A stretch of DNA of 64,000 nt, taken from positions 8,043 through 72,042 of the IMG/VR virus record IMGVR_UViG_3300029705_000100. One strand, given 5' to 3'. The notes under the pieces are model-generated. The model was not told where the DNA came from, ran no database searches, and saw only the letters and a program-made list of their open reading frames with translations. This document shows, in pieces, positions 1 through 61,462 of this stretch. The translations under genes were made by a program, and so were the position numbers. Positions within the stretch are counted from its first letter, which is position 1; each line of letters begins with the position of its first letter. Source of the DNA: a virus (lineage: Duplodnaviria; Caudoviricetes).

Positions 1-266
1 GATTCTCCTTCAATGATTGTGTTGTGGATGCGTTGAGCGATGGTGCGCGGCGTCAGAGCACATCCGTATACCTTGCCGTCATCCATAAGGATCAACGCTT
101 TGGTCATGCGTCCCGCTGTCAGGTCATGAAATACTTTCTCGTCTTTGGCGGCCTTGCAGAGCCGTCTTGCATTGGCGGACAGCGGCATGAGGATGGCTTC
201 AATGCGATTGGCGCAAAGGACATTGCCAAAGCCAACATGCACAAATCGCTAAGGGGTAAATGCCAT
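1..266 (-). CDS. remA: RemA/DUF370-family regulator homolog, partial (runs off left edge); in-frame TAG at codon 6 (249-251)
   Basis: AGGAG RBS, ATG at 266. MAFTP*RFVHVGFGNVLCANRIEAILMPLSANARRL...DLTAGRMTKALILMDDG...LTPRTIAQRI resembles RemA (INIGFGNIVSANRIIAI...DATYGRRTRAVII). Absent from ORF track because of the TAG. Confidence 0.8.
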
Positions 267-314
267 GAAATATAGCTCCTTCCATTAGGATATAAGCAGG
301 TCTTCAACCTGCGA

Positions 315-401
315 TGGTAGGAGCAGCGGGGATCGAACCCGCACGCCGTTTCCGGCAGCGGTTTTAGAGACCGCCGCGTATGCCAGTTCCGCCATGCTCC
401 C
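315..401 (-). tRNA. Amber suppressor tRNA with Leu identity, anticodon CUA (365-367)
   Basis: GGGAGCA-TG-GCGGAACTGGCATACGC-G-GCGGT-CTCTAAA-ACCGC-TGCCGGAAACGGCGT-GCGGG-TTCGATC-CCCGC-TGCTCCT-A-CCA. Full cloverleaf, 87 nt, encoded CCA, long variable arm, A73, A15:U48, Leu-type D loop. Confidence 0.93.
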
Positions 402-514
402 TTGATAGAGGGACTTTGTTTTGTCCTTCATCTATTAAGGGGGATATTTTGGCAAAAAACTTACAAGGATGAGTGATTTTGTTCGAACATTGATGTGTTG
501 GGAATAGATAGGGT

Positions 515-545
515 AAAAGAAAACAGTCACGAATACTCGTGACTG
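515..545 (-). terminator. Rho-independent terminator between cargo gene and tRNA
   Basis: CAGTCACGA/TCGTGACTG stem followed by TTTTCTTTT on minus strand. Confidence 0.65.
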
Positions 546-557
546 TAGTAGAACGTA

Positions 558-1286
558 TTATTTGAGTGCCTTCATACTCAGAAAGTTACTTTTAGCTTCG
601 TTGTAATCAGATAGTTTTCTATCCCATTCAGTACGGTTTTTGGCATTACGCAATACTTCGTGCAAGGACACATCGTCGAAAAATCTGGTGTCTTCATCAC
701 AGTAGCATTTTTTAGCATATTGCTTGAGGAAAAGTAGTACCGCTTCGCTACAACGCTCTTCTTCATACTCTGGGGGATAATTGTGGATGCATTTCGCCAT
801 ATCGTCAACGAAGTACAGCATGTCGGGTGGAGGATCAAAATCCACAATTTCACCGTCAATTTCAACAGGAACGGGTTTGGTATCGATACCATTTTTCTTT
901 AGCTTATAATCGAAATATGAGCGTAGACTCTCCGCACATACCATTTCATAGTCATACCTGCAAATATCCTTGTATTGTGATAGTAATCTGTCAATGGTGG
1001 TTCGTTCACTTTTCCACAAATACCTTGCATTATGGTCTTTCAAAAGTGAAGTGAGTTCCTTGTATCTTTGCCAAGTTGGTTCATCACTCAAAACCGTCCG
1101 CATCGGGTACAAAACCGACGATTTCAGATTGTTTCTATTACCGAACCTGAAGTATATCGCAGATATTATCCATGAAACAACACCGGATAAGACGACGGAT
1201 ATCAAAGTGAAGATGTTAACGCGGATATTCTCCGGAGCAAAAATCCATTTCAGATAGGATATAACATACGCAATAATCTCTTTCAT
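558..1286 (-). CDS. Hypothetical protein with N-terminal TM helix (cargo)
   Basis: AT-rich ORF, hydrophobic IFTLISVVLSGVVSWIISAIYF; start uncertain (ORF extends to 1346). Confidence 0.6.
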   Translation of the reverse strand: MKEIIAYVISYLKWIFAPENIRVNIFTLISVVLSGVVSWIISAIYFRFGNRNNLKSSVLYPMRTVLSDEPTWQRYKELTSLLKDHNARYLWKSERTTIDRLLSQYKDICRYDYEMVCAESLRSYFDYKLKKNGIDTKPVPVEIDGEIVDFDPPPDMLYFVDDMAKCIHNYPPEYEEERCSEAVLLFLKQYAKKCYCDEDTRFFDDVSLHEVLRNAKNRTEWDRKLSDYNEAKSNFLSMKALK

Positions 1287-1519
1287 GTGACACCGTCCAA
1301 TCAAAGAATGTGCCTTTATAATACAGCAAATGGAGGTATTTTTCAATACTGCTGCAGAGAATTCAGATAATTGAGGCCCAAGCTATGCTTACATAGAATT
1401 ATGAAAAAAGTTCACAACGATAGTGGAAACACAGCTTGAATAGAGGTATATTCATATGAGGTTAGATGCTGAAACATAATATATGATAACTACCGAGGTG
1501 TACAAGCTGAAATATCCTA

Positions 1520-2302
1520 TTGATTAACTCGCAGAGCCGCGTTATACTATATTCGAAGGGAATACAACCGATGATGATTGAGAGGACGAGATATATGAAC
1601 GGTACTATCTATGCAATACGTACGGAAACTTTTCCTAAAAGAAGATTGATCAATAATGACCTATACAGATTGTTTGAACTCGTAGCAAAAAAGTATCAAG
1701 TGATACATGGTAAGCGTGGAAAGGTTATCTATTTATACGACGATGTCTTCGAAGATGTCTACCTTTCAAACACTGTACGGTTTGTGGCTAAATACGCAAC
1801 AAAGTTCATTAGAAAAGTACCACTTCAAGACAATCCTATACATTGTGCAGGAAGGTATGCATCGAAGAATCAAATAATGCTTTTGCTGAATGAAAATAGC
1901 CGGTTTACAAGCGTAAATACTATTTTTATTCTTGTCGTGTTGTTGAAGTTACTCTTACTCGATGAACGCAGTAAAGAATTTAGAAGTCTATCATGTCGGA
2001 AAAAGTCTATCATGCCAGTAACAGAAAAGAACATTATTCCTAACGATATAGAAGATGATATAGCTGTTTCATTTTTGAAACAGCATATAGAAAACTTGCT
2101 CAATGACCCATATTATCGACATTATGTTCCTTCACGACATTTTATATGTGAATATATTATAGATTGTTACGATGAACTGATTGAGCTCGTAGGCAACAAT
2201 GCTATTGACGCATTGCGCAAGGCAAAGAATAAAGCGGAAGGTAATATGGGGATACTTGCTGTACAGCCACTCCAAATGCCGCGTTATCCAGCAACCATGT
2301 AA
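1520..2302 (+). CDS. Hypothetical protein (cargo)
   Basis: 260-aa AT-rich ORF; start uncertain. Confidence 0.55.
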   Translation: MINSQSRVILYSKGIQPMMIERTRYMNGTIYAIRTETFPKRRLINNDLYRLFELVAKKYQVIHGKRGKVIYLYDDVFEDVYLSNTVRFVAKYATKFIRKVPLQDNPIHCAGRYASKNQIMLLLNENSRFTSVNTIFILVVLLKLLLLDERSKEFRSLSCRKKSIMPVTEKNIIPNDIEDDIAVSFLKQHIENLLNDPYYRHYVPSRHFICEYIIDCYDELIELVGNNAIDALRKAKNKAEGNMGILAVQPLQMPRYPATM

Positions 2303-2322
2303 ATGCAATGAGGAGGAGGAGC

Positions 2323-2979
2323 ATGAATAAAAGCCCGTTTGTACCCGAATACCTAAGGAATATGCGTATAAATACATCAGAAAAATGGATGTTTTTTGCG
2401 TCGGGCATCAGTTCATATATTGCGTCCCTTTTTGCAGAAGGATTCGTTGATGAAGGACGACCCTTGTTAGTAAGTTTTATCTTTGGCTGCGGTGTTTTTT
2501 TAGTGCTATTCATATTATCCGTTTGTATTGTTTATTTGAAAAACAATTCATTCTTTTACCGTTATCCAAAATTGAGTGAATATGAGATATGCAGTTTCAT
2601 TAACGAGAAGTTACCGGATGAATTGATGAGAATAAATAACAATATGGCAAACGCTACTGACGATATAAATAAACAGGTTTTATGCCAACACATCTTGTAT
2701 CAACTTGATGTAATTATTGAATTCATTGATACACATGTTAGAGAAAGCTTGATTAGGGGGAAGAATAACAATGGCCATATGACCGGTCGTGCCTATAATC
2801 GCATAACCCCTGATCATTTAGAGGCCGTACTGTGTTGTATATACAGAATACTTGTACAAGTGATTCCTGAAATACCTGACAATACGTATGCAGAGGCACT
2901 GAAAAGACAAGTAAATTGCCTGGCATGTAAACATCTGAAATGTGATTCAATAGAAAAAAGCAAATACATGCCTTTATGA
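2323..2979 (+). CDS. Hypothetical membrane protein (cargo)
   Basis: GAGGAGG RBS, ATG 2323, one or two N-terminal hydrophobic segments. Confidence 0.6.
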   Translation: MNKSPFVPEYLRNMRINTSEKWMFFASGISSYIASLFAEGFVDEGRPLLVSFIFGCGVFLVLFILSVCIVYLKNNSFFYRYPKLSEYEICSFINEKLPDELMRINNNMANATDDINKQVLCQHILYQLDVIIEFIDTHVRESLIRGKNNNGHMTGRAYNRITPDHLEAVLCCIYRILVQVIPEIPDNTYAEALKRQVNCLACKHLKCDSIEKSKYMPL

Positions 2980-3208
2980 ACAAGAAATGAATTTGATATT
3001 TGAGTGTTAGCTTCTTTACTGTATGATGTCGTTTCTTCAAGCAAGCGCTGTTGTAACTAGCAAGTTGGCAATCCAATCTATCTTCACAAGTGAATAGCAG
3101 TGGAGTAAGCCAAAATAATAATATTACCTCAGCCAATCGTAATATAACTTATGATTTGCTGAGGTATATTGTTCTGGTTTTGAACTCGTGTTGAGATTCA
3201 CACAAATA

Positions 3209-3847
3209 TCAATCAGGAGAATACGATTTCTTTCCGTGACAATTTTTGAATTTTTCTCCACTACCGCACGGGCACGGATCATTCCTGCCAACGGTTATGT
3301 TGGATAGTGGATTCCTGTTGTACAATACCAATGCTCGTTCATATATAGCTTGCTCAGCTATAGGTGGCAATCCGATATCTACACTCCCGTCATCATTGGC
3401 ACAATACCTAAATAGCATGGATAAAGCGAACGCGTATGCATCCAGTTCAATTTCCTGCAAAAAATGAAGGCTTGTAGTCTCAGGAGTATTCCTTACATAA
3501 TGATCAAATTCTTGTTGCCATCGGAGAATATTTTCCGGCCTCTCTGCTGCAAAGTTGTTGTCTTTCTGGAACTGTATTTGCTGCATCTGATATATATGGC
3601 GAATTTCGTGCCATATAATGTACATTACATCCTGTTCAGTTGTTGAGCAAAACCAATCAAGATTAACCGTGATTGTTCCATTTGAAGAAGCCACAGCTCC
3701 AATCAGTTGATCGTTGAAATGGTTGATGTTCACTCTTTCAAACGCAAAACGCACTTGTCCACAGTTCAAGAAAGGCATATGCCTCACAGAAAGCATCAAA
3801 AGATGATTAAGATATTCAAAGGCTTTGATTGGTTCAAATTCTCTCAC
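3209..3847 (-). CDS. HExxH metallopeptidase-like protein with C-terminal SEC-C Zn motif
   Basis: [11 protein letters not shown], downstream EIELDAYAF, and [20 protein letters not shown]. Confidence 0.75.
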
Positions 3848-4161
3848 TACTCATCCTCCTCCGAACCCATTCTCTCACAGTACCACAAAAATTCGAGGAG
3901 CATTTTATTGTCCAAGTATCGCCTAAGTAGGGCTATACCTTCGCAAGCAAATGCCATACCCATCATCCAGCAGAAAGGTATGTAATCATTCTTAAGTAAT
4001 CTGGAGACACCAACGACTCCGCAAACAATGGCTATTACGCTCCATACAATCGGGATGAAAGGAGATATTGCACAGTATATTATGCGTATAGAGATCATGA
4101 CATTAGATATCTGATCAGAGTGATTCGAATTTCCTTTTTTGGTATGGCACATAGTCTTCAC
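3847..4161 (-). CDS. Small 2-TM protein; ends TAG-TGA double stop
   Basis: Two hydrophobic segments; start uncertain. Confidence 0.5.
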
Positions 4162-4316
4162 TCCTACGACGTTGTCTCTGTATAGGGTTTCAATTACGAT
4201 TTATTATAGCATTTTCTCGTCTTTATATCAATCCTCGGAATAAGAGGAAGGAATTGTAATTTATCTCACGAATAATGTATTAGGAACATATATAAACGGC
4301 AAAGAGGAAGGCTTAT

Positions 4317-5180
4317 ATGAGCAATGTGACACTTGAGACCTCTAACTTCGGAGAGCAATTAGGGGCATATGATTTTTTTAACGTTCTTGTATCAGGTTCC
4401 GTATTCTTGTCATCTTTGGCTGGTATACTACTCTGCATCAATGACAATCTGAAGACTCTCCCGGATATATCGATTCTTGAAGGCGTTATTATTTCAGTTG
4501 CTGTTTTTTTTGTTGGACTCATAATTCAAGAATTGGGATCAATAGCGGATCGGTGCATATGGCATGTTAAGGAGTATAACTATCGCAATTTTCTAAAGAA
4601 ATCTTGTCCGGACAAACGAATTATGAGAATGAAGCGGACTTGGAAATATGTTGATAAAATTGCATACAGGCAAGCGCAAAAATCCAATAAGGGAAACTGT
4701 GTGATCCACAACCCAGCACTGCTTTGTTATTATAGAGAGATTGCAAAAGGCATCATTGACAGTCATCCAGTAATAAAGAAGAAAAGTGAGTATTCGGATC
4801 CACTCGAAGATGACAATGTAAATCGTTGCATCTTCAGTTATTGTGAATACTTCGTTTCCTGCCAAGGAAAAGATAAGAAGGTAGAAAAACTTCGTGCGCT
4901 GTTTGCCATGGCACGCTCATTCGCAACATGCTCGTTTTTGGTTGAAGTGTGTTCGTTGATAGCGATAATATACAAGTGCTTGAGCGATAATCTAAACCCA
5001 CTCTCAATTTATACAAATCCAGACCTACAAAAATTGTCAGCAGTGTGCATAGTATGTCTTGTGTCGTATCAGTTATTTAGAAGCAGAATGACCAAAATGA
5101 TGCGCTATATGATTCTGATATTGATGGGAAACTACAATGCATGCATCATCTCTCAAGAATTTGAGCGTAAAGGCTCTTAA
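4317..5180 (+). CDS. Multi-TM hypothetical protein (cargo)
   Basis: 287 aa; N-terminal AYDFFNVLVSG plus 2 TM, two further C-terminal TM segments. Confidence 0.65.
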   Translation: MSNVTLETSNFGEQLGAYDFFNVLVSGSVFLSSLAGILLCINDNLKTLPDISILEGVIISVAVFFVGLIIQELGSIADRCIWHVKEYNYRNFLKKSCPDKRIMRMKRTWKYVDKIAYRQAQKSNKGNCVIHNPALLCYYREIAKGIIDSHPVIKKKSEYSDPLEDDNVNRCIFSYCEYFVSCQGKDKKVEKLRALFAMARSFATCSFLVEVCSLIAIIYKCLSDNLNPLSIYTNPDLQKLSAVCIVCLVSYQLFRSRMTKMMRYMILILMGNYNACIISQEFERKGS

Positions 5181-5295
5181 ACATAGACCAAAAACAATAG
5201 CTCGATCATGATATAACCTTCTGATTGTTATCCAATGATCAAGCTATTGTTTTACTTATTAGTTGTGGTGAGGATCACCGGGCCCGAACCCGCAT

Positions 5296-6237
5296 GGGTA
5301 CTGTCAAGAGTTGTGCGCAAATTCGTTCACAGGCATCCAGTGAAATCAGCCGTCAGGCAATAGAGGCGTCGCTCAAAGCGGCCTCCAAGTGCTTCATGTT
5401 CATGTATTTCTTACTGCCCCATTGAGTACCTGCGACATGGCGCAGGCGGGCACAGACGAGCATCAGCGCGGAATTGCCGTCGGGGAAGGTTCCGACTACT
5501 CTGGTTCGCCGTCGGATCTCGCGGTTCAGGCGTTCAATGACGTTGTTCGTGCGGATCCAGGTCCAATGCTCGGAGGGGAAATCGCAGTAGGTCAGCGTTT
5601 CTTCAATGCTGTCTTCCACCCTCTTCGCCGCCTCTTTCAGTTTTATCTCGCGGAGTTCAGCGATGACTGCTTTAGCTTTTTCTCGCGCTGCCTTTTTGCT
5701 TTCCTGTGCATGAATCGCCTTGAGCATCTTCGCCACCAGCTTCACCTTCGGACGCGGCACGACGGAAAACACATTGCGGTAGAAATGTACTATGCAGCGC
5801 TGGTATTTCGCATCCGGAAATACCTCGCCGACTAGCCTCCAGCATGCCCAGACATTTGTCGCCCACTATCAGCTTTACGCCCTCCAGACCGCGTCCCTTC
5901 AGCCACTGGAAGAAGCTGACCCAGCTGGCCTTATCCTCCTTCATGCCCTCTGCGGCCCCCAGAATCTCGCGATATCCGTCTTCATTGACCGCAATCGCCA
6001 CCAGAATGGCCACATTTTCGTATTCTCCGCCCCAGTTCCGGCGCAAATAGATGTCGTCCACATACACATACGGATATTTTCCACCCTGCAGCGGTCGGTT
6101 ACTTCCTCGTTCAGTGTTACAATCTTCTCAGACATGGTTCCCAGGCTCCTTTCAGAATGTGTAGTGTCGCGACTTCATTCTACCACTTGCCTGTCAACCA
6201 TGTCTATTTCTTTTTGCGCAACTTATTGTACCTTATC
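5296..6237 (-). pseudogene. IS256-family element, internally deleted and frameshifted transposase
   Basis: MSEKIVTLNEEV N-terminus joined directly to the YVD..YLRRNWGGEYENVAILVAIAVNEDGYRE region; frameshift near 5830; C-terminal IRTNNVIERLNREIRRRTRVVGTFP. Ends approximate. Confidence 0.85.
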
Positions 6238-6397
6238 GACATATTTCTTTTTTGCACTACAAATTGTGCATTATCTGTAACCGTCAAATAATCCCTCGTG
6301 AGAATTGTCGCTATCTATCGCGATATCTCGATATCTACAAAAAAGGCTCAGAAGTATCCGGTCAAACGGTACCACTGAGTCTTTTTGTATAAGGCTG

Positions 6398-8047
6398 TTA
6401 TCGGCAAAGCTTCTGTAGCTGCTGATTCCATGGCGCAAGCATATCCAGGAAGTCACAGGAATACCGCCCACCAGCGCAAGGCATTTGCTCCAGCAGGTAT
6501 TTCAGATATTTGTATGGATCCAGTCCGTTGGCTTTCGCCGTTTCCACAATGCTGTAGACTGCAGCACTGGCTGTGGCTCCGTTCGGCGTATTGCAGAACA
6601 GCCAGTTCTTCCGGCCCATCACGAATGGACGGATGGCGTTTTCATCCAGATTGTTCGAGATCGGAATCCGTCCATTCAGCAGGAAACTGCCGAGAATCTG
6701 CTTCTGGCCGGTGGCGTAGCCTACTGCCTTGCTCAGCGGTGAATTCCGCAGCGCGTCAATGCTGCTGCACCATGTCCAGAATGCTTCCAGCACGGGTCGG
6801 CTTCGTTTTTCGCGTTCCGTCTGCCGTTCTGCCGGAGAAAGTCCTGCGAATTCACGCTCCAGCATGAACAGTTTTTCGCAGAATTCAAAGCCTTCCTTCG
6901 CTTTGCTGCCCTGTGCCTGTTCTCCGTTCGGATCGCTGCCGGGAATTGCTTCGAGAAATTTCCGGCGCACATGTGCCCAGCAGCCGCAGCGGGTTCCGTT
7001 TGTTACCTTGCTGTACCCTGCGTAGCCGTCCGTGACAAAGTATCCATCATACCCTTCGAGGAACTTCTTTGCATAGTCCCCGGAGCGTCCCGGCTGGTAG
7101 TCGAATAGAACAATCTGCTTCTCTTCATGTTCACCGCTCCGGTAGGCCCACATGTAGGACTCGCTGGTCGGCGTCCTTCCCGGCTCCTTCAGCACCTGTA
7201 CTGTGGTTTCGTCGCAGTGCAGAACACTGCTCTTCAGTAGTTCCGTTTTCATATGCTTCCATAGCGGGGCAAAGTAGTCTCTGTCAACCGCCAGCACCCA
7301 GTTCGCCAGCGTTGCACGGTTCATCTTAAGGCCTGCTCTCTCCCAGTCCTGCACCTGCCGGTACATCGGAATGGCCATGACATATTTGTCGTACAGCACC
7401 TGTGCTACAGTACTGGCGCTGGCTATACTGTGCTTCAGTACGGGATATCTGTGTCCCTCCGGAACATCTGCCTTTACGAGAACCATTCCCGGTCTGTTTT
7501 CACATTTGGCACAGACATCCATGTCCGCACGTTCACAGCCTTCACACTCCGGCATACCATCTTCACAGCCGCGGCAGGCGTAGGTCGCGCGGTAATACTC
7601 GTGAACCTTTACCTGTGCAGGAATATATTCGCACTCCTTGCGGATATACTCCCTGCCGATTTTCTCAAGGGCATGTCCGCAGCGGCGGCAGACCTGCTCT
7701 TCTGCCGGGAGCTCGTATTCATGAATCTCCACCGGCAGCCCGTCCAGCAGTTCCTCACGGCTGCGTTTCCTGGCTCGCTTGTGCGATTTCACTTCAACCG
7801 TGCTTTCTGGGAGCGCTGTCGGATCTTTTGCTTTGGCGTCCGCTGCATCCTCTGCTTCGTTGAAGATGCTCAGCTGTTCGCAGTCCGCCGGGAGCACAGT
7901 CAGCGGCTTCTGTTTTTCGCTCTTGCTCCCGAAATGTGCCTTCTGCAGATTACGGTACATGGCGCTCATATTTTCCAGACGATTCTCCAGATACGTTATG
8001 TACTCCTTCGCTTCGGGCGACAGCGTTCTTTCGTCCGGACGTTCCAT
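6398..8047 (-). CDS. tnpC: IS66 DDE transposase TnpC
   Basis: LHCDETTVQVL, CWAHVRRKF, ISNNLDENAIRPFVMGRKNWLF, LLPW-like end. Confidence 0.92.
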   Translation of the reverse strand: MERPDERTLSPEAKEYITYLENRLENMSAMYRNLQKAHFGSKSEKQKPLTVLPADCEQLSIFNEAEDAADAKAKDPTALPESTVEVKSHKRARKRSREELLDGLPVEIHEYELPAEEQVCRRCGHALEKIGREYIRKECEYIPAQVKVHEYYRATYACRGCEDGMPECEGCERADMDVCAKCENRPGMVLVKADVPEGHRYPVLKHSIASASTVAQVLYDKYVMAIPMYRQVQDWERAGLKMNRATLANWVLAVDRDYFAPLWKHMKTELLKSSVLHCDETTVQVLKEPGRTPTSESYMWAYRSGEHEEKQIVLFDYQPGRSGDYAKKFLEGYDGYFVTDGYAGYSKVTNGTRCGCWAHVRRKFLEAIPGSDPNGEQAQGSKAKEGFEFCEKLFMLEREFAGLSPAERQTEREKRSRPVLEAFWTWCSSIDALRNSPLSKAVGYATGQKQILGSFLLNGRIPISNNLDENAIRPFVMGRKNWLFCNTPNGATASAAVYSIVETAKANGLDPYKYLKYLLEQMPCAGGRYSCDFLDMLAPWNQQLQKLCR

Positions 8048-8164
8048 GACACCGCCTCCTGCGTCTTTTTCTTCCAACTCCATTATATCACGATCCGGCA
8101 GACAGAACAAATGACCGGCGCGCAGCAGCACCGGCCAAAATTCGAAAAGTATTAAATCTCTGTG

Positions 8165-8524
8165 TCACACCAGATCTTTGGCACTGACATTTTTGTGCGC
8201 TTTGGGCTGAACGATGCTCAGGCCTTCCATGAGCCAGCGATACTGCTGCGGGGTAAGTTGCTGCACTTCTTCACGGGTACGCGGCCATTGATAGCGACCG
8301 TTCTCCAGACGTTTGTACAGCAGCACAAATCCGTCTCCGTCCCAGAACAATGCCTTGAACCGGTCGCTCCTTTTGCCGCAGAACAGAAAGACTGCCTGCT
8401 GTCTGGGATCCAGTCTGAACTGCTGCTGCACCTGCGCTGCCAGTCCGTTGATTCCACGGCGCATATCTGTGTATCCGCAGGCAATATATATCGCGCCGAT
8501 CTGACTCAGATCCAGCGTCTTCAT
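8165..8524 (-). CDS. tnpB: IS66 accessory protein TnpB (Orf2)
   Basis: IYIACGYTDMRRGINGL...FLFCGKRSDRFKALFWDGDGFVLLYKRLENGRYQWP. Confidence 0.92.
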   Translation of the reverse strand: MKTLDLSQIGAIYIACGYTDMRRGINGLAAQVQQQFRLDPRQQAVFLFCGKRSDRFKALFWDGDGFVLLYKRLENGRYQWPRTREEVQQLTPQQYRWLMEGLSIVQPKAHKNVSAKDLV

Positions 8525-8904
8525 CTCAGCATCTCCAGAACCTGACGCAGCAGCGTTACGTCCGCTCCATTCCGGATTTCTATGCTCCATTCGCCTTTGC
8601 GCAGAATGATCTGCGCAGCTTCAACAGCGTCCGCCTGTTGTGCTTCGCGATATGGAACCGGTTCGAAGTTTACTGGAACCAACTGCCTTTCTTCCGCCTG
8701 GATCATCTGCGATCCTATGCTTTTCACGGGCAGTTTTCTGCTTTCCTGTTCCCATACCAACCTCTGCCGACGATAATATGTCGCAACCGGCATACTGTGC
8801 TCTCTGCACCATGCCGCTACCGTCTGACCGCTATTCCGGCAGTCATGTACCATTTCCCGCCACTGCTTCAGTATTGCTTCACGTTTTGCATCCTGTAGTT
8901 TCAT
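8521..8904 (-). CDS. tnpA: IS66 TnpA (HTH)
   Basis: WREMVHDCRNSGQTVAAWCREH; ATGA overlap with tnpB. Confidence 0.85.
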   Translation of the reverse strand: MKLQDAKREAILKQWREMVHDCRNSGQTVAAWCREHSMPVATYYRRQRLVWEQESRKLPVKSIGSQMIQAEERQLVPVNFEPVPYREAQQADAVEAAQIILRKGEWSIEIRNGADVTLLRQVLEMLR

Positions 8905-9100
8905 CCCATCCGCCCTCTCATGAGAGTTAGCGCTATCTCTCGCTATATCGCGCGATTCTATTATCTCATGGGAATTTTCGGCGCGGGGAGACGGGGGATT
9001 ATTTGACGCTTACCATTATCTCGATGATGGTGGTGTCTAGTAACTATGGCTAGAATAAGAACCAATGCGATCTTTCTTTTACTTCATCTCATCTATGATT

Positions 9101-9132
9101 AAAGCCACTTTGCAGAGGAGCAAAGTGGCTTC
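9101..9132 (+). terminator. Terminator-like hairpin used as the group IIC intron target
   Basis: AAGCCACTTTGC-agagga-GCAAAGTGGCTT, ending 5 nt before the intron 5' end. Confidence 0.8.
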
Positions 9133-9137
9133 TTTGA

Positions 9138-11054
9138 GTGCGCCCGGCGGCGCACGTTTCTAAAGGGTGAAAGACCCGAATCCGCCCGGTAGCGGGAAGG
9201 AGATAGCCGAAGGCAAGGGGGTCCCTCGTGAGGCGGAATCTGAAGGAAGCCGGATGTGGGGAAAAAAACTCACGGGCAAACCTCTGGCCTGACGAAAAGA
9301 AACCGCATATAAGGTTATGCATGAGGGTAAGGCTGCTCAACAAGACGAAGCCCAATAGCTACACGGAATCATGCGTGATAGATGCGGCAGGTAGATGGAG
9401 GGAAAGAAACGTGTGGGACCCGGGGAGGTCTGCGCGGAACGCGCCGAAAGGCGTAACCACAGCCATAAAAGGAAAGCTGTGCTGAACGCGCAGAAGTCAG
9501 CCGAGGCCATAGTACCTTGTGGGGAAAAAACAAGGGAAGGGCCGAACCAATACAGCCGGAGTAACCGGGGAAAGGAGAACTGCATGAAGAGAGCAGAAAA
9601 TACCGAAAGTAGCTGCCTGCAAATGAATAGCACGGAATGCGAAGGGTATGCAGGAGCGCAGAGTGCGGTTAAACCGGAACGAGGAGAAACGGAAAGCAGA
9701 CAGCCGAAGCTGCTTGAGGCGATACTGGACAGGGATAACCTGAACAGGGCGTACAAGCGAGTGAAGGCGAACAAGGGAGCACCGGGAGTAGACGGGATGA
9801 CCGTAGAGGAGGCGCTGCCATGGCTCAAAGAACACGGGAAGGAATTGCGGGAAAGTATCCGCGAGGGGAAGTACAAGCCGGAGCCGGTGAGGCGGAAAGA
9901 AATACCGAAGCCGGACGGAGGAGTACGGAAGCTGGGGATACCGACGGTGAAAGACCGGATCATCCAACAGGCGATCGCTCAGCAATTGACGCCGCTGTAT
10001 GAACCGAAGTTAACGGAAGGGAGCTATGGATACCGACCGGGAAGAAGCGCACAGGATGCGATCTTCAAGATCCGGGGATATGCAGAGGACGGATATGAAT
10101 GGGCGGTACTGCTCGATCTGAGCAAGTATTTCGATACGCTGAACCATGAGAAACTGCTGAACATCCTGCGGGAGACCGTGAAGGATGAGCGGGTGATACA
10201 GATGATAAAGAAGTATCTGAAAAGCGGAGCGATGGAGAACGGCGTGAAGATCGCGACGGAAGAAGGACGTCCGCAGGGAGGCCCGCTGTCACCGCTGCTA
10301 GCGAATGTGTACCTGAATGAGTTTGACATGGAATACGAGAGACGAGGGGTACCGGTAGTGAGGTACGCAGATGACATCGTATTGCTGTGCAAAAGTCAAA
10401 GAGCAGGGGAACGACTGCTGAAGAGCAGCATCCGCTATCTGGAAGGGAAACTGAAGCTAAAGGTGAACCGGGAGAAAATCCATATCGCAAAGGTAAACGC
10501 GACGAAGAAGTTCAAGTTTCTGGGCTTCTCGTACAGTAAGGGAAAGGAAGGACTGTTCATACGAGTCCACCCGAAAGCCCTGCTGAAAGCGAAGAACAGG
10601 CTAAGGGAACTGACGAAGCGGAACCGTGGAAAGAATGTCAGACAGGTCATGAAAGAAGTAAAACAGTACATGACAGGGTGGCTGAATTACTATGCGACAG
10701 CGTCCATGAAGCAGAGAATGCGGGAATGGGACGAATGGCTGCGGCACAGAATCCGGGCATATATCTGGAAGCAATGGAAGAAGCCAAGAACCAAACTGAG
10801 AAACCTGATGAAGCTGGGCGTACCGGAGTACTTCGCGCAGATGGCGGCGAACAGCAGGAGAGGATATTGGTTTACGGTAGATACCGGAGCCGTGAAAAGA
10901 GCGATAACAAATGAAAGACTCGCACGCGCAGGGTTCTTTGAACTCTCCCCGGCATACGAGTCTATTCAGTCTGCTTGTATTGGACGCGCCGTGTACCGAA
11001 CGGTACGCACGGTGTGGTGAGAGGTCGGGAGTTAATCGCCCCCTCCTACTCGAT
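9138..11054 (+). mobile_element. Group IIC self-splicing intron
   Basis: 5' GTGCG at 9138; short DV (CGCCGTGTACCGAACGGTACGCACGGTGTGGTGAGAGG); DVI ending CCTACTCGAT; inserted after a hairpin. Confidence 0.93.
9584..11020 (+). CDS. ltrA: Group II intron reverse transcriptase/maturase (no endonuclease domain)
   Basis: GAPGVDG, PKPDGGVRKLGIPTVKDRIIQ, PQGGPLSPLLAN, RYADD, domain X. Confidence 0.95.
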   Translation: MKRAENTESSCLQMNSTECEGYAGAQSAVKPERGETESRQPKLLEAILDRDNLNRAYKRVKANKGAPGVDGMTVEEALPWLKEHGKELRESIREGKYKPEPVRRKEIPKPDGGVRKLGIPTVKDRIIQQAIAQQLTPLYEPKLTEGSYGYRPGRSAQDAIFKIRGYAEDGYEWAVLLDLSKYFDTLNHEKLLNILRETVKDERVIQMIKKYLKSGAMENGVKIATEEGRPQGGPLSPLLANVYLNEFDMEYERRGVPVVRYADDIVLLCKSQRAGERLLKSSIRYLEGKLKLKVNREKIHIAKVNATKKFKFLGFSYSKGKEGLFIRVHPKALLKAKNRLRELTKRNRGKNVRQVMKEVKQYMTGWLNYYATASMKQRMREWDEWLRHRIRAYIWKQWKKPRTKLRNLMKLGVPEYFAQMAANSRRGYWFTVDTGAVKRAITNERLARAGFFELSPAYESIQSACIGRAVYRTVRTVW

Positions 11055-11220
11055 CGATCTGAAATGGATAGCATCTATCTATAATTAAGTAAAAAAAGTA
11101 TTATTTGCACATATACATTTCTTCTGGTACTGTCTACATATATTATACCACCGAATTCTCTCTCTATTCGGTATACTCCAATACGGGTGCCAGAAGATCG
11201 TTTGGCTTAATTGACCTGTT

Positions 11221-11826
11221 TCAGGTAGTATGCCTTGAAGCAATGCATTTAGTTAAGACTACGATTTTTCTGTTTGCAACTCGTAGTTTCACATAATCTT
11301 CCAATTCATGAGCAAAAACAAGGGTGTTACAGCATCCTTCTTCGCGCATGTGATATATTTCAGTTTCCCAACGGTGCTGATCGTCTTCATCTAACGGTAA
11401 TCCATTTTCGAATAGTTCCTTTTGAATAGTCTGATCCTCAGATAAAGAACCACCCTTTTCTGCTTTTTTTATATCGAGCATAATAAAATTACGAACTGTC
11501 GATAATCCAGTGTAAAGAGCAACAGCCTCATTAAAGGTCCACTGAGATTTGGGTTTCTCGTAAAACTTGGAGTCAACCTTTTTAAGAGGCTTCGCTTGTA
11601 AAATTGCGACCATCAAAGCGCCAGCAACTTTGTATCTATTCAACCTACCCGATGGATCTTTCATATAATGGTTTTTTGCATGTACTCTTGCTTCTTCATA
11701 ATAGTTACGAAGTTGCACCTTAACATCATCGGGTAAAAAGACTAATCCACCATAAGTCCTAACTAAATATTCACATCTGGGCTTTATGATTTTTTCCCAT
11801 GTCTCATTAAACTGCCGTTCAGTCAT
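11221..11826 (-). CDS. Hypothetical protein, third gene of a cargo operon
   Basis: ~200 aa; LNRYKVAGALMVAILQAKP...NEAVALYTGL. Confidence 0.6.
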   Translation of the reverse strand: MTERQFNETWEKIIKPRCEYLVRTYGGLVFLPDDVKVQLRNYYEEARVHAKNHYMKDPSGRLNRYKVAGALMVAILQAKPLKKVDSKFYEKPKSQWTFNEAVALYTGLSTVRNFIMLDIKKAEKGGSLSEDQTIQKELFENGLPLDEDDQHRWETEIYHMREEGCCNTLVFAHELEDYVKLRVANRKIVVLTKCIASRHTT

Positions 11827-11850
11827 TATAACTCCTACGTCCAATCATAT

Positions 11851-12030
11851 TTATTTCTCTTCGGGCTGATATGAAAGTTCTTGAGCAAATTCTAAGGTTT
11901 CACCATAATCCTCGTCGCTATTGCTAAGTTCAGGGATTACAGAAACATCTCGTGTAGAACTTCTATTTATGGGTAACGAAAAACCAATAATGATAACCGC
12001 GATGATTAAAGCAATAAAAAAGAAACTCAT
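11851..12030 (-). CDS. Small single-TM protein (59 aa; below ORF-track cutoff)
   Basis: MSFFFIALIIAVIIIGFSLP + acidic tail; ATGA overlap with upstream gene. Confidence 0.6.
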   Translation of the reverse strand: MSFFFIALIIAVIIIGFSLPINRSSTRDVSVIPELSNSDEDYGETLEFAQELSYQPEEK

Positions 12031-12524
12031 GATTTTCCCCCCTGACCTACATTGGCGGAATGAATACTCTTTGGACGATTGAAATATCCCCTAGCAGTAT
12101 TTCGGCTCTGAGAATATACTATGCGAAGGGCATAGAACTTTTTCAACATAAAAAGTGCAGGAGAGATCATCATTAGAATTTTTAAGCCAAACGAGACATA
12201 TCCTTGAACCTCTGCCGGGATTTGTGAAAATAAATCAACACCATTAGATTTAAACACATACGCACTTCCAAGAAAAAGTAAATATAATATTCCTGAAATC
12301 ATCGCTAAACGATCAATTGTGTACTGCGATGAATTGTAGGCTGTAACGTGTTCAAAATCTTCAATCACATCAATTACTAAAGGTGTCAAATAGAGCACAA
12401 CAACTAAAATCATAGTTGTAAAACTCTCAGACCATATAGCAAAGAAATGCGATACCAGACCTAACACAGATATAAAGAAAAGCCACACCGAGGACGAAAG
12501 TGATCTATTACGCATGTTCAACAT
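12027..12524 (-). CDS. 4-TM membrane protein
   Basis: Four hydrophobic segments in 165 aa. Confidence 0.65.
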   Translation of the reverse strand: MLNMRNRSLSSSVWLFFISVLGLVSHFFAIWSESFTTMILVVVLYLTPLVIDVIEDFEHVTAYNSSQYTIDRLAMISGILYLLFLGSAYVFKSNGVDLFSQIPAEVQGYVSFGLKILMMISPALFMLKKFYALRIVYSQSRNTARGYFNRPKSIHSANVGQGGKS

Positions 12525-12714
12525 CCTGTCAAGTATTCTATCTTTACAATTATTGTATCAAAAGATTGGGAATAGTACAAGTAGTTGATATACCATATCT
12601 TGTCGTTTTTTTTATTTTTAAGTAAATATTTATTGAATTCAAAACTCATGAAGCATCTAGTTCACGGTATCGCACTGAGGATTGTAGGCGTCCTATTAAA
12701 CTCAGTTATGCGTA

Positions 12715-12960
12715 CAGCACCGTATCATTTATAAAGTGAAGTACGGGCTTCCGTCCGTAATCACCGTAATCTTTTCCTCCGGAGTATTTCATAGTGTGGG
12801 TGCAAAGTCGGCCACTTTCTCATCGCTGCTTTTCAGCTGTTTTGAGAAGAAGTGAGCATTTTGCGCTGCGAGGTACGGCTGGCACATTCGTCCTCGATGG
12901 CCTTGCACCGATCAGCGGCATCCTGATAACGCTCTGCCAGCGCATTGCTATTTGCATTAT
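12715..12960 (-). pseudogene. Probable decayed C-terminal fragment of a large serine recombinase
   Basis: NALAERYQDAADRCKAIEDECASR...VADF then, after a shift, EKITVITDGSPYFTL; resembles the coiled-coil/ITV..DG..F tail of Firmicutes recombinases. Confidence 0.45.
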
Positions 12961-13148
12961 AATATCAATGACATTTTCCTGAGAAGAACTTTGTTGATAT
13001 TATTCCGATAATGAGATATACTATTACCAAGAAAAGTAACCAGATTGCACAACACCATTCATGACAACACCCCAATGCCATCTTCACGGAAGGCAAACTG
13101 TCAGCGATCTTACTCTACGTTGCGCTGATTTATAATAGGAGAAACACC

Positions 13149-14372
13149 ATGTTCAATAACAACGAACATTATACATTGATTGATCCGAGGCTGATCAAGG
13201 GAATCGAGAAAGTTCAAAAACTAGCTTTATGGAACAGAAGAAACATGATAGAACAAAATTCCTACATCGAAACCGCAAAAAGAATTGCAGAAGTTCAGCT
13301 TCAGATAGAATCCGGTGTATCGCTTGAAGAGACAGTTTTTCAAGATTTTTATTCCAGACTGTGTTATAGAATGTACTATTGTGAATATAGTTTGCATGTC
13401 TACAAGCACGTTAATTCTTATGTGCTTATAGATCCATTGGTAGAACGCTTACTCCTTGTATTGGCTGCTATTGAAGCCGATGTGTGTATTCCTGTATGTA
13501 TTGAAAGTGATTATCTTCATCGGAAACTGGATTCTGATGTGTTAGAGTATAAAAGGGAAGTGAAAAGGAAAAATAGTAATCTTTGGATAAGAACAAACCA
13601 AATTATGAAAGATATTAATACAATTCTGTGCAATATAAGCGTTACCAATAATTTGGAATATGACCAGCATGGTAATTGTTGTAGATTGGATGAGGATATA
13701 AAATGTCAGATTGCGCATGTATATCATGAAAAACTAATGGAGTTTGATGATAGCGCCAATTTTTACTCCATAGTACAAGAAAGAATACACGGGATAAGAA
13801 AACGTGGAACCAAATATTCTATACTCGTTAACTGGAAAAAAGATCCTTACACAAATTCAAGTTTAGACGGAGCAGTTAAAGGAACACGAAGAATGGAAGT
13901 GATAAAAAAGGGCACCTGCATTGATCGCATTGGTAATGCTCATGGTAGCTATTTTTGTCCTCTTGATTCAAACGGAATCCCTTTTCCTTTGAGACAGAGG
14001 GCTATAGGAGCAGTGTTAAAAAACGAAGATTTTCTAGAAGAAAACTCCTGTTATCATAGATATTTACTCCTAAAGGATTTTACGAGACAGAATTTTCAAA
14101 TTGCTATTAAAGAGTCTCCATACAATGAGGTAGCAAAGCAGGTTTTATTTTGCAAATTAGATGCTTATTATTGGGATGTTGCCTCCACCGATAATAAATG
14201 TGATCATCCAGGCGAAGCCTACGGCGATCAATATAGTGATGGAATCAAAATAGGAATAATTGACAATATGTTTTTTGATGATGATGGAGGGGCAATCCAA
14301 TATATTACTCCATTTTCAGCTAAGCAGCTAGAAATTATGTACATGATTAAAGAAATCGAATATTACGTATGA
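13149..14372 (+). CDS. Protein with C-terminal TNT (tuberculosis necrotizing toxin-like) NAD+ glycohydrolase domain
   Basis: KGTCIDRIGNAHGSYFCP, GIPFPLRQRAI, YHRY, GGAIQY motifs; no signal peptide evident. Confidence 0.75.
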   Translation: MFNNNEHYTLIDPRLIKGIEKVQKLALWNRRNMIEQNSYIETAKRIAEVQLQIESGVSLEETVFQDFYSRLCYRMYYCEYSLHVYKHVNSYVLIDPLVERLLLVLAAIEADVCIPVCIESDYLHRKLDSDVLEYKREVKRKNSNLWIRTNQIMKDINTILCNISVTNNLEYDQHGNCCRLDEDIKCQIAHVYHEKLMEFDDSANFYSIVQERIHGIRKRGTKYSILVNWKKDPYTNSSLDGAVKGTRRMEVIKKGTCIDRIGNAHGSYFCPLDSNGIPFPLRQRAIGAVLKNEDFLEENSCYHRYLLLKDFTRQNFQIAIKESPYNEVAKQVLFCKLDAYYWDVASTDNKCDHPGEAYGDQYSDGIKIGIIDNMFFDDDGGAIQYITPFSAKQLEIMYMIKEIEYYV

Positions 14373-14379
14373 AATAAAC

Positions 14380-14428
14380 AATACCCCCAACTCATTTTGG
14401 GAATATTCCAAAGAGAGTTGGGGCGTTA
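14380..14428. terminator. Hairpin between convergent TNT gene and dnaE
   Basis: CCCCAACTC...TTGG/CCAA...GAGTTGGGG inverted repeat. Confidence 0.55.
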
Positions 14429-14485
14429 TCAACGTGATTTATACGGTAGGTATATGAACAATCACACATGTAGACTTTTAGAAGA

Positions 14486-17400
14486 TCAGGACAGAATAGT
14501 GTATTCCTGCAGCCAGAGTTCTTGTTGGCCGGAAATGGGTTTGGGCTTACCAGTAGAGAAGGAATAGGCAGGACGGCGAAGCCAATCTTTGACAAGAATG
14601 ATATTGCCTTCGGTCTATGGCTGTTCCTGATACTATAGCTTTTTTACCTTCATCACGCCAACGTTGCCCGTTGCGACGCTGTACAGCCGCAGCTTCGGGC
14701 TGTAGCGGTCATCGACTTCAAGAACCACATATACCGCCCGCTCACTTTCACAGACGGTCAGAGGCGTGCCTATATGTTCTGCCTCAAAGCGGAGGCAATC
14801 AGCCAGCGGAAGCTCCTCTTCAGGGCTGTTCTGCTCCAGCTGCCGAAGGATGGCAAGGTGCCTCTCCTGTGAGGGCTTCACATGGGTCTTGGAAAAACGG
14901 GATTCACCCTCGAGAAACTGCTTGTACACGTTCAACAGCTTCCCGGGCGTACCAAACTCACGGAAGTAGTCAAAGCGGATCAGAATATCGATTGCGCGGG
15001 AGTCAAAAGCGGGATTCATGGTCATATCATACAGCAGGTCGGTGAAACAGGCATACTGATTATTCCGCATGCGGTAGAGGGCCTGAGCTACGCGCTTTCC
15101 GATATGCTTGATGGAGGTTAGGGCATCGGAGATGGTGTTGGCGTCATGATCGAGGTAATAATCCCGATTGTCCTGACGGAATCGACAGGGTGCGACACGA
15201 ATTCCGAATGCACGTTTCATCTCGGCTTTGACCTGCGCAATGCGATCCTTGTCGCCCTTGTCGGCATAGCCGGAGAGGAGAGTTGTGTAGTATTCCTACG
15301 GGTGATGCGCTTTCAGCCATGCGCCATAGAGGGAATCAAGAGCGACGCAGACAGCGTGCGAGGCGTTGAACAAATATGCCGTGGCATCGTTAATGATTGT
15401 CCAAACCCTTTCTGCGGCATCGGCATCACCGGTGTATGAAGTGAATCCAAGCAAAAACTGTTCCTTCAGCTTCAGAACCTTTTCAGCTTTCTTTTTGGAA
15501 ATAGCTTTGATTGCTGAGTATGCTTCGGGTGCTGTAAAACCGGAGACCTGCAGTGTCTTCATGATTTGTTCCTGATACAGAATGAAGCTGGAGGTCATAT
15601 CTCTTGTCTGGATTAGCTTATCGAAGGCAGGAATACCATAGTCGAAGTGTCTCCGATCCAGAAATGTGGGTAGCATGGACTTGAAGGCCGGACGGACTGC
15701 TGCGACAAAGGCTGCAAGCTCCGTGATGTTCTTCGGCTTGTACCGCATGACCTTTTCGCGGGTCTTTTCCTGCTCTACCTGATTGAGCCCCATTGTGTAG
15801 CCTTCGGCATACATGCGCCAGGTGTCGCGATCACCGCGTGTCATATCCAACAGTTCGTTGACATTGGGCTGTACCATGCCAATCCGTTGAAAGGCTTGTT
15901 GGTTTGTGCGGCATACTTCCACCAACTATATGTCATTTTTCAGATATCCATACTGTTCGGATGTTGCGCCGTCGATGAAAGCAGCGAATACCGGCTGCTT
16001 TTTTCCTGTCTTGCTGTTGATACGTATGACGCCGATCTCGCGGCGGATATCTTCAATGCAGAGAAGATAAGCGCAAGGATGGGGAGAGATGGAGTCGATC
16101 ATGCCCATGTAGCGCTCGCTGGCAGCGATCAGATCGCGGAACTGATCGGGAACGAAGTCAGCCAGATCGACTTCTTCACCTTCATCCGCATACCTGACAG
16201 CAGTTTCATAGGCTTTCAGCTGATTACCTATCTCATTGGCTGTCTCAAAGGGAATGTTCGCAGCTCGGCAGTACATTTTCCATGCGGAAAGGCGTTTCAG
16301 CGTACCGAATGCGACCATAGGCGCCGCATGCCATTCACCAAGGACTTCCAACTGTGCCTGTTCAAATGCTTCACGGTTGGCAACGTTCATATCGATGTCA
16401 GGAAGAGAGCCGGACAGGATACGGTCGGCAGAAATAAAGCGATCGGGGAACATTTCTACCGGTATGGCAAAACGGTCGATGGACGACAAGCCCAAAAGCG
16501 AATTGGTGTAGTAGCTGGGTGCGCTGCCTCTGCCGGTCTTGGTGATGACGCCGCCTTTTTCAACAGCACGGCGCACAATTTCATGGTCAAGCAGGAAGTA
16601 ATCGCTCATGCCGGTAGAGGTGACGGTATCAGCCTCATAGCGAAGTCCATCCATGCGGATTGCTTTTTCTTCATCAGACATGCCTGCGGTCTGACGTTCA
16701 AACTCGCGGAGAATCAGTTCCATATACTTCAGATTCCGCTGTTCCTGTGTCAGATTCGGAAAGATCGTCGGGAGCTTCTTGCTCTTGTCGAACACGATAT
16801 CCTCGAAGGTCAGAAAAACATTGGTATTTTCTATAGCTTCGCGGATCTGGGCATCGGAGAGCACCCCCTGCTCCTGAAAGCGCCGGAAAGCTTCGGCTCC
16901 GGAAGGATAATCCATATACCAGCCGCCTTCATCCTCATAGCGGATGTGATTTGCTTCCAGTCTGTGCTCGCGCAGCGCAGCGTCTTCCGGATAGATGAAA
17001 TGGCTGTCCGTTCCCATGATCAGGGGGATGCCATGTGCTCGGTATAGCTTCAGAAGGAAGCGGTTGAGCTCCTTTTGCTTGTCGGTGTCGTGGTACTGCA
17101 CCTCCAGCATGAAGCTGTCGCGGAAGTGTGCTGCTATGCGCAGGATCAGGCGCGTTGCCTCCTCTTCGCCATACTTGAACACGCCGGCGATGCAGGCAGT
17201 GGTGACGAATACATCCTTGGGGTCCAGAGAAAGCAGCAGCTCCAGATCAATGCGCGGACGATAGTAATAGCCGGAGATGTTGGCTTCGGATAGGATGAAG
17301 TTCAGATCACCAACGCCTTTCCGGGTCTTTGCAGCCAGAATGATATGGCAGTTGGTGTTATCCTTCTCATGCCTGTCTTTGACGATATACGCTTCGGTCA

Positions 17401-17662
17401 CATAACGCCAGCGTAGATTGTACTTTTCTGCAAGAGAGGCACACTGGTGATACGCGCCCTGATTACCGTGTTCGCAGGAGGACAAAACGGAATACCCGAG
17501 CTCGACAGCGCGGCGGGCATAGTCTTCGTTGGTGGCCACGCTGTCGGTGAGCAGGATATTGCTGACACAGGAGTGCCGGTGATAGCAGACATAGGGAATG
17601 TCCGGCGCGGCGTCGGTTGTCGGCGCCGCGCGTGGAACATCCTATACGGGAGCAGTGGTCAT
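14486..17662 (-). CDS. dnaE: DNA polymerase III alpha-like (DnaE), 1058 aa with 5 in-frame TAGs (17642, 15926, 15296, 14633, 14615)
   Basis: PHP motif YHRHS; GRGSA; PDIDMN; HPCA; GYLKNDI*LVEV (family KxDxL); FNASHA; WLKAHHP*EYY. Three track ORFs are in one frame; ATGA overlap with upstream gene; ends TGA. Confidence 0.93.
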
Positions 17663-20711: not shown

Positions 20712-20724
20712 ATCAAACCTCCCA

Positions 20725-53100: not shown

Positions 53101-53113
53101 TGGGAGGAATACA

Positions 53114-61438: not shown

Positions 61439-61462
61439 TGATGCAGAAGGAGGAAAAGGACA

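Follow-up and report, generated by a model that had tools for sequence, protein, structure and literature searches.

Introduction

Amber codons are known to be read as leucine (Leu) in laboratory and organellar settings. In E. coli, supP (Su+6) is the transfer RNA (tRNA) gene leuX, encoding tRNA-Leu(CAA), mutated to the anticodon CUA, and engineered amber pairs of leucyl-tRNA synthetase (LeuRS) and tRNA-Leu(CUA) exist. TAG also encodes Leu in chlorophycean and Scenedesmus mitochondria (codes 16 and 22 of the NCBI tables). In this study, we analyzed a stretch of phage DNA of 64,000 nucleotides (nt), hereafter the window, which corresponds to bases 8043–72042 of a single 72,042-bp virus record (IMG/VR IMGVR_UViG_3300029705_000100; Duplodnaviria, Caudoviricetes). 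A tRNA gene with the anticodon CUA lies at window positions 315–401 on the minus strand. We consider it very probable that this gene specifies a phage tRNA on a Leu-type body that would be charged by LeuRS, would read TAG as Leu in lytic genes, and would be made with the replication transcript.

Phages with a code unlike that of their host have been described with TAG-to-glutamine (Gln) and TGA-to-tryptophan (Trp) reassignments only; a model of lysogeny under the standard code and a recoded lytic phase was proposed, and the glutaminyl- and tryptophanyl-tRNA synthetases (GlnRS and TrpRS) were thought to be "intrinsically susceptible" (bioRxiv 10.1101/2021.08.26.457843). Gut phages with code 15 (TAG to Gln) or code 4 (TGA to Trp) include the crAss-like, Lak, Garnet, Topaz, Agate, and Jade phages and phAss-1 (bioRxiv 10.1101/2021.08.26.457843; PMC9523058; PMC10607447; PMC11210395). 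Gln was assumed for TAG in phAss-1, in crAss-like phages, and in annotation tools (PMC9523058; PMC10607447; PMC11210395). A full-text literature search of incomplete coverage found no report of TAG-to-Leu reassignment in phages.

Neither LeuRS nor seryl-tRNA synthetase relies on the anticodon (review PMC7373986). As LeuRS ignores the anticodon, Leu-type amber suppressors would be easy to evolve, and a suppressor that reads TAG as Leu is only moderately surprising.

Structure and conservation of the tRNA

A preliminary description of the window, made from the letters alone, had reported a complete type II tRNA with the anticodon loop CU-CUA-AA, A73, A15:U48, a Leu-type D loop, and an encoded CCA. 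All of these features were present, on the minus strand. ARAGORN found a single tRNA within the window, at 315–401, with the anticodon CTA at tRNA position 35, and a search of the whole window with the Rfam tRNA model RF00005 gave 52.1 bits (E = 2.6e-8) for the same interval. Based on ARAGORN, RF00005, isotype profiles, and cloverleaf covariation, we annotated the 87-nt gene as a type II, tRNA-Leu-type amber suppressor.

Read from the sequence, the acceptor stem has 7 base pairs (bp), GGGAGCA/UGCUCCU, of which the first is G1:U72. U8 is present, and the D stem of 3 bp (GCG/CGC) encloses the D loop GAACUGGCAUA. The D arm and core are of the Leu type; i.e., the 3-bp D stem is accompanied by A14, by A15 with U48, and by G18G19 at the position seen in tRNA-Leu. 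The anticodon stem has 5 bp, and the anticodon CUA (365–367, minus strand; ARAGORN and sequence reading), which reads UAG, sits in the loop C32-U33-CUA-A37-A38. This loop is one base from the loop CU-CAA-AA of the tRNA-Leu(CAA) genes that we recovered. The variable arm is long (GCCG-GAAA-CGGC, then G and U48), U48 stands immediately before the T stem, and the T arm is standard, with the T loop UUCGAUC. A73 (tRNA position 84), which is the Leu discriminator, precedes the gene-encoded CCA.

ARAGORN labeled the gene tRNA-Pyl by its anticodon alone. In tRNA-Pyl, the variable loop has 3 nt, the D loop is very small, and the G18G19 and T-psi-C motifs are missing. This label is contradicted by the long variable arm, G18G19, the GUUCGAU T loop, and the Leu columns in the protein alignments described below, and it was rejected.

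The large terminase of the phage retrieved 11 related viral loci with 71–90% identity, and three longer relatives carried a homologous tRNA(CUA) with 72–87% identity. A pattern search added one more viral contig and six contigs of metagenome-assembled genomes (MAGs); one pattern match, on a Muribaculaceae MAG contig, received no tRNA call from ARAGORN, however. The same tRNA family was present in two MAGs, of goat-rumen Clostridia and human-gut Ruminococcaceae. Homologous CUA tRNAs were found in five related records, comprising three viral contigs and two MAGs.

We compared eight distinct Leu-like CUA tRNAs. The RNAalifold consensus missed the D and T arms, and pairs were instead counted on an explicit cloverleaf with a long variable arm. 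This cloverleaf was 98.4% paired, compared with 41–54% in slid controls, and 17 of its 23 pairs changed on both sides. A73 was invariant among all eight tRNAs; the D arm was also invariant, partly owing to the way in which three distant sequences were found.

Starting 2 nt past the CCA end, a 6-bp hairpin, GCAGGU-UGAAG-ACCUGC (296–312, minus strand), was read from the sequence. Its position is kept in all five relatives and its sequence differs; it presumably serves 3' processing or weak termination. An Rfam search around the tRNA at a permissive threshold returned chance-level matches only, with no hepatitis delta virus (HDV)-like or theta ribozyme.

Leucine identity of the tRNA

Raw identity was uninformative on Leu versus serine (Ser); therefore, we used isotype profiles scored with the anticodon masked. 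The type II reference tRNAs (14 Leu, 12 Ser, and 4 tyrosine (Tyr)) were taken from the five MAGs carrying Leu-like CUA tRNAs, and 29 of 30 were assigned correctly in a leave-one-out control. The window tRNA scored 40.6 bits with the Leu profile, 12.2 bits with the Ser profile, and 6.3 bits with the Tyr profile, whereas genuine tRNA-Leu genes left out of their own profile scored 36–59 bits. The Leu identity proposed in the preliminary description was thus upheld by isotype scoring. In addition, the D arm, GGCGGAACUGGCAUACGC, is one base from that of the tRNA-Leu(GAG) of the Clostridia MAG G006, and the best blastn matches to the tRNA in a phage collection were mostly annotated as tRNA-Leu. A73, the A15-U48 pair, and the position of G18G19 are Leu identity rules known from work in E. 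coli.

Several observations weigh against this assignment. Whole-length identity failed to separate the Leu from the Ser references, and the profiles built from these references of five MAGs are small. The acceptor stem (G1:U72, G2:C71, G3:C70, A4:U69) departs from the typical tRNA-Leu stem, which begins with G1-C72 and C2-G71; all 14 reference tRNA-Leu have such a GC start, and the stem in the window is more Tyr- or Ser-like. In E. coli, this start of the acceptor stem is not, to our knowledge, an identity element for LeuRS. The anticodon arm closely resembles that of a tRNA-Ser(CGA). Given the atypical acceptor stem, the Ser-like anticodon arm, and the nonseparating identity, some mischarging is conceivable.

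We therefore considered whether the tRNA is charged with Ser, as a derivative of tRNA-Ser(CGA) comparable to E. coli supD. A tRNA-Ser(CGA) has almost the same anticodon arm as the window tRNA (GGCGGUCUC-A-AAACCG), and over its whole length the window tRNA is as similar to two tRNA-Ser as to tRNA-Leu. However, the tRNA has A73, as opposed to G73 in 12 of the 12 tRNA-Ser references, its variable stem is short (4 bp), its D arm is Leu-type, and its Ser profile score is low; Ser was also absent opposite TAG in relatives. Charging with Ser is, in our judgment, highly improbable.

The acceptor stem also bears on charging with Tyr, as in the classical amber suppressors that arose from tRNA-Tyr by a change of GUA to CUA; the tyrosyl-tRNA synthetase would then see A73, U35, and the long variable arm. 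GGGAG in the acceptor stem and A73 resemble the tRNA-Tyr genes of the same MAGs. However, the Tyr profile gave the lowest of the three scores, and the D arm is that of a tRNA-Leu. The residues found opposite TAG, which bear on this alternative as well, are described next.

In-frame TAG codons and the residues they stand for

A self-trained coding model that used only TAA and TGA as stops picked 62 genes. Conserved genes were open only when TAG was read through, and a tRNA whose anticodon matches TAG is encoded by the phage itself, as is the case in recoded phages. Matches to family profiles continued across the in-frame TAGs in the polymerase, the primase/helicase, the large terminase, the portal, and ThyX. 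The DnaE-like DNA polymerase (stop-to-stop frame at 14486–17716, minus strand) matched phrog_405 over residues 33–1030 (E = 4e-196) and has TAGs at frame codons 597, 807, 1028, and 1034. The primase/helicase (18915–20750, minus strand) matched phrog_239 across its two in-frame TAGs (E = 1.6e-89), and relatives have CTG or TAG at these positions. The large terminase and the portal (51436–54658, plus strand) also contain in-frame TAGs, as judged from profile matches and the alignments of relatives. In the endolysin gene (61442–62977, plus strand; phrog_291, E = 6.7e-46), two TAGs follow the start by only a few codons; lysis itself would therefore depend on suppression.

Just downstream of the tRNA, a RemA-like gene (1–265, minus strand; PF04025, 71 bits) starts with ATG at 265–263 after AAGGAG and has its 3' end at the window edge. 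Its codon 6 (250–248) is TAG, where two relatives have TTA and one has TAG. The tRNA accordingly lies directly upstream of a TAG-containing gene, as described previously.

Next, we compared the TAG positions with distant homologues that use the standard code. In ThyX, the residues at TAG codon 86 were L in 63, I in 51, M in 4, and V in 1, and those at TAG codon 204 were L in 63, M in 45, and I in 7. In the polymerase, TAG codon 597 falls in the conserved KNDxL motif, where 120 of 120 homologues have L; at TAG codon 1034, the homologues have L (54), V (35), or I (13), and at TAG codon 1028 the largest class is L (44). TAG codon 807 behaved differently from these, with Y in 73 and L in 34 of 122 distant homologues. 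This column is the point in the proteins that favors Tyr; however, the closest relatives have L at codon 807, and in the related-phage alignments described below Tyr was the majority residue in 0 of 34 TAG columns and fell outside the eight best-fitting residues. Taken with the tRNA features, charging with Tyr appears very unlikely.

In related phage contigs, Leu stood opposite the TAGs of this phage in 119 of 157 sense cases, mostly as CTG, and at 69 further aligned positions the relatives also had TAG. Conversely, of the 176 residues of this phage that face a TAG of the relatives, 131 are Leu. When the related-phage alignments were put through a Codetta-like test, Leu formed the majority in 30 of the 34 TAG columns; its margin was 52.6 nats over methionine and 106 nats over Gln. 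Opposite TAG, Leu had a share of 0.76, the same value as the ordinary L-to-L conservation in these alignments (0.76).

These alignments also bear on the reading of TAG as Gln (the phage "code 15"), in which the Leu-like build of the tRNA would be incidental. The TAG-recoded phages in the searched literature were all assigned Gln, and the column of TAG codon 37 of ThyX has Q or E in relatives. However, Q accounted for only 5 of the 157 aligned residues, Gln was far behind Leu in the test above, and a type II tRNA is not a type of substrate for GlnRS. In short, Leu fits the TAG columns and a table-15 translation does not, and we regard a Gln reading as extremely improbable.

The meaning of TAG as Leu in the phage proteins is well supported by these comparisons. 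The Leu identity of the tRNA is likewise well supported, by the tRNA body and by the residues for which TAG would stand. We infer that charging is carried out by the host LeuRS, which, being blind to the anticodon, would load the phage tRNA with leucine.

Distribution of TAG among gene groups

The density of in-frame TAG was 4.4 per 1000 codons in the replication genes, 4.3 in the late arm, and 3.4 in the nucleotide-metabolism genes. In the early/lysogeny block of 27 genes (22896–44587, minus strand), which includes a recombinase, an anti-restriction protein, a reverse transcriptase, and a methyltransferase, the density was 0.34; behind this figure are two TAGs, each close to the 5' end of its stop-to-stop frame. 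The early-block frames are bounded by TGA or TAA, and none of them has a TAG near its 3' end. By this indirect reading, no gene in the block appears to stop at TAG. The phage has approximately 45 in-frame TAGs, and TAG makes up approximately 3% of the Leu-plus-TAG codons.

We propose that the charged tRNA would decode these in-frame TAGs as Leu in competition with the host release factor 1 (RF1). The genes that would depend on TAG decoding are those of nucleotide metabolism, replication, packaging, the virion, and lysis, whereas the early/lysogeny genes, written without TAG, would need no suppressor.

A single tRNA as the possible recoding machinery

Six-frame searches found no RF-1 domain or class Ia synthetase core in the 72-kilobase (kb) contig or in four relatives. 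The preliminary description had noted that the window holds no synthetase or release factor gene and had called for a search of the wider phage for such genes; our searches agree with this negative. In the three relatives whose records were scanned whole, the CUA tRNA was the only tRNA, and two of them extend 11–13 kb past the right end of this contig. As a point against the idea that one tRNA is the whole recoding machinery, all records are fragmentary by CheckV, with completeness of 29–69% (37% for this contig), and further factors could sit in the uncovered part. We therefore retain this idea, which had been put forward earlier, as plausible.

The candidate host MAG G006, which carries a related prophage, has prfA (488 bits). 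Competition with the host RF1 is thus expected, and the earlier suggestion to this effect was a fair one.

The tRNA of each of the five related records begins approximately 45 nt past the stop of a TAG-containing polymerase gene and is followed by the RemA-like gene. The gap leaves no room for an evident promoter; therefore, the tRNA of the relatives looks co-transcribed with the replication genes. It had been suggested that expression of the tRNA could switch on the replication and lytic program. The presence of TAGs in replication, packaging, virion, and lysis genes is in line with this suggestion, whereas the arrangement in the relatives speaks against separate control of the tRNA. This arrangement points to a feed-forward timer, and not a separately regulated master switch; i.e., tRNA made from the replication transcript would gate or time the TAG-containing genes.

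We also lean toward a broader reading, which goes further than that of the single gene. In this reading, a clade of animal-gut Clostridia prophages would use a conditional code with TAG as Leu, in which one tRNA hijacks the anticodon-blind host LeuRS and suffices to gate the translation of replication, packaging, and lysis genes without a phage release factor or synthetase.

Genome setting and the insertion upstream of the tRNA

At the left end of the contig, a tRNA-Lys(UUU) is directly followed by a tyrosine-recombinase integrase, and the contig thus looks like a prophage cut out beside its attachment tRNA. The order on the minus strand from this end is integrase, dGTP/dATP diphosphohydrolase-like protein, NUDIX, NrdD, ThyX, RemA-like protein, and tRNA. 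Inserted, partly low-GC DNA of approximately 14 kb (402–14485; GC content 0.39–0.49) lies between the tRNA and the polymerase and, by synteny, is absent in relatives. It contains IS66, a Mutator transposase fragment, a group II intron, and unknown genes. Past the insertion are the DnaE-like polymerase, an exonuclease, the primase/helicase, and a second recombinase, and then the long minus-strand block that holds the anti-restriction protein, the reverse transcriptase, and the methyltransferase; the plus-strand arm, which comes last and runs to the contig end, carries an AEP primase-like protein, an exonuclease, the large terminase, the portal, a virion protein, and the endolysin.

The insertion weighs against expression of the tRNA with the replication transcript in this particular phage, as it has severed the tRNA from the polymerase operon. 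A strong terminator lies 121 nt upstream of the tRNA: a sequence scan found an intrinsic-terminator-like hairpin of 10 pairs with a T run (523–546, minus strand), which ends the inserted gene at 558–1346. A terminator separating the tRNA from the upstream cargo had been reported before and was confirmed by this hairpin. Between the terminator and the tRNA, a scan that covers one promoter type only found no sigma-70-like promoter, and the 121-nt spacer upstream of the tRNA (402–522, minus strand) is unrelated to the spacer of the relatives.

These observations, along with the G1:U72 wobble, would fit a tRNA copy that is stranded or poorly expressed, cut off by the insertion and the terminator, in a prophage that is defective or needs read-through or a helper. 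However, the tRNA gene is intact, the MAG G006 copy also has G1:U72, and the TAG-bearing genes are all open apart from their TAGs. At least seven studies of animal faeces and sheep gut contributed runs with the same arrangement, and contigs of a sheep-gut run covered both the tRNA and the inserted gene. Moreover, the promoter scan reached only the one promoter type. A stranded copy is therefore unlikely, and we retain the functional Leu suppressor as the preferred interpretation.

The stretch was present, in whole or in part, in runs of at least 17 studies, whose samples were animal faeces and sheep or bovine gut. We compared two bovine metatranscriptome runs with window positions 1–6300, and contigs were found only at 1852–2833, 3519–3675, and approximately 5300–6240, i.e., in inserted genes. 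No contig of these two runs covered the tRNA or the RemA-like gene, which is uninformative on tRNA expression because tRNAs are seldom captured in contigs of this kind. The contigs at 1852–2833 and 3519–3675 matched the unknown inserted genes at 1520–2302, 2308–2979, and 3209–3847 with almost no differences. The inserted cargo genes may be expressed in lysogens, with DNA carry-over as the alternative. In addition, contigs of sheep-gut and faecal runs joined position 2981 straight to 5169, indicating that a variant without these 2187 bp (2982–5168) circulates.

A megablast search of 24 kb against an annotated phage collection gave no match. The 377 bases to the left of the tRNA-Lys had no match in MAGs G006 and G007 except for the tRNA-Lys itself (91–95%); with this flank unmatched, the host is placed no more closely than "Clostridia-like."

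Mobile elements and further features of the phage

Within the insertion, the IS66 element and the Mutator-family transposase fragment next to it occupy 6398–8904 and 5353–5772 (both minus strand); the IS66 element has a transposase of 588 amino acids, a TnpB_IS66 protein of 141 amino acids, and a small upstream frame. The group II intron is complete (9222–11054, plus strand), with the Rfam domains D1–D4 and D5/D6 and a reverse transcriptase/maturase frame of 541 amino acids at 9395–11020.

Two genes outside the window, given here in genome coordinates, have further TAG codons. The attachment-side integrase has, at 1850–1973, a strong GGAGG site, an ATG, and then TAG as codon 5. An AGGAG site arises from the TAG-GAG sequence and precedes a TTG that lies in frame six codons on, and the integrase might be made from two starts, one for each coding state. 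NrdD, the anaerobic ribonucleotide reductase (4318–7269, minus strand), contains a LAGLIDADG intein, and a single conserved TAG lies close to the 5' end of its gene.

Leu-like CUA tRNAs in other genomes

Leu-like tRNA(CUA) genes whose acceptor stems are those of an ordinary tRNA-Leu were observed on Bryobacterales, Thermoleophilia, and Phycisphaerae MAG contigs (L021:3230–3318, L023:1085–1173, and L026:65–148). PHROG scans of the frames beside these CUA tRNAs showed no clear phage or recoding signal. The presence of CUA tRNAs with other acceptor stems in distant phyla hints at a repeated, independent origin of Leu amber suppressors.

The Bryobacterales MAG also has a 92-nt type II tRNA (L083, G009:C413:3246–3358) with a Ser-like body (G73 and a Ser-type D arm) and the anticodon UAG, which reads the Leu codons CUN. 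This Ser-bodied tRNA was excluded from the Leu reference set. The same MAG has two dense tRNA arrays of some twenty and ten genes (G009:C468:19242–21893 and G009:C143:22088–24310), as in large phages.

Discussion

If TAG is read as Leu in this clade, phage stop-codon recoding would not be limited to GlnRS and TrpRS, and LeuRS, being indifferent to the anticodon, would be the obvious third route. Phage gene callers and annotation pipelines offer only TAG as Gln (table 15) or TGA as Trp (table 4); in such a clade, they would mistranslate every recoded site. As TAG is sparse here, the recoding is also easily missed altogether. Comprising one tRNA, approximately 45 TAG codons, and a lysogenic gut Clostridia phage, this case could offer a clean and testable system for asking whether the supply of a suppressor times a lytic program. 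The possible use of the tRNA as an amber-Leu suppressor in biotechnology, raised in the preliminary description, appears to be of modest value, as it adds little to the existing Leu amber suppressors.

Compared with the known recoded gut phages, this phage is similar in that it encodes a tRNA(CUA), would use a standard-code host bearing RF1, and has no dedicated synthetase, so that charging is presumed to fall to a host enzyme. As in those phages, TAGs are found in replication, structural, and lysis genes, and the lysogeny genes avoid TAG. It differs from them in the amino acid, which would be leucine instead of glutamine, and in the type II, Leu-type tRNA. TAG use is also sparse in this phage, at approximately 3% of Leu codons and 4 per 1000 codons.

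Similarly to supP, the phage tRNA combines a tRNA-Leu body with a CUA anticodon and has an anticodon loop one base from a CAA loop, and it would insert Leu at UAG if charged as its sequence predicts. However, supP is a laboratory allele of a cellular gene, whereas the phage tRNA gene is natural and conserved, dozens of essential codons would depend on it, and its acceptor stem is atypical for tRNA-Leu. The mitochondrial codes 16 and 22 have the same TAG-to-Leu reassignment. In the organelles, however, the code is fixed and there is no competing host code, whereas in this phage it would be conditional and overlaid on a bacterium that uses the standard code.

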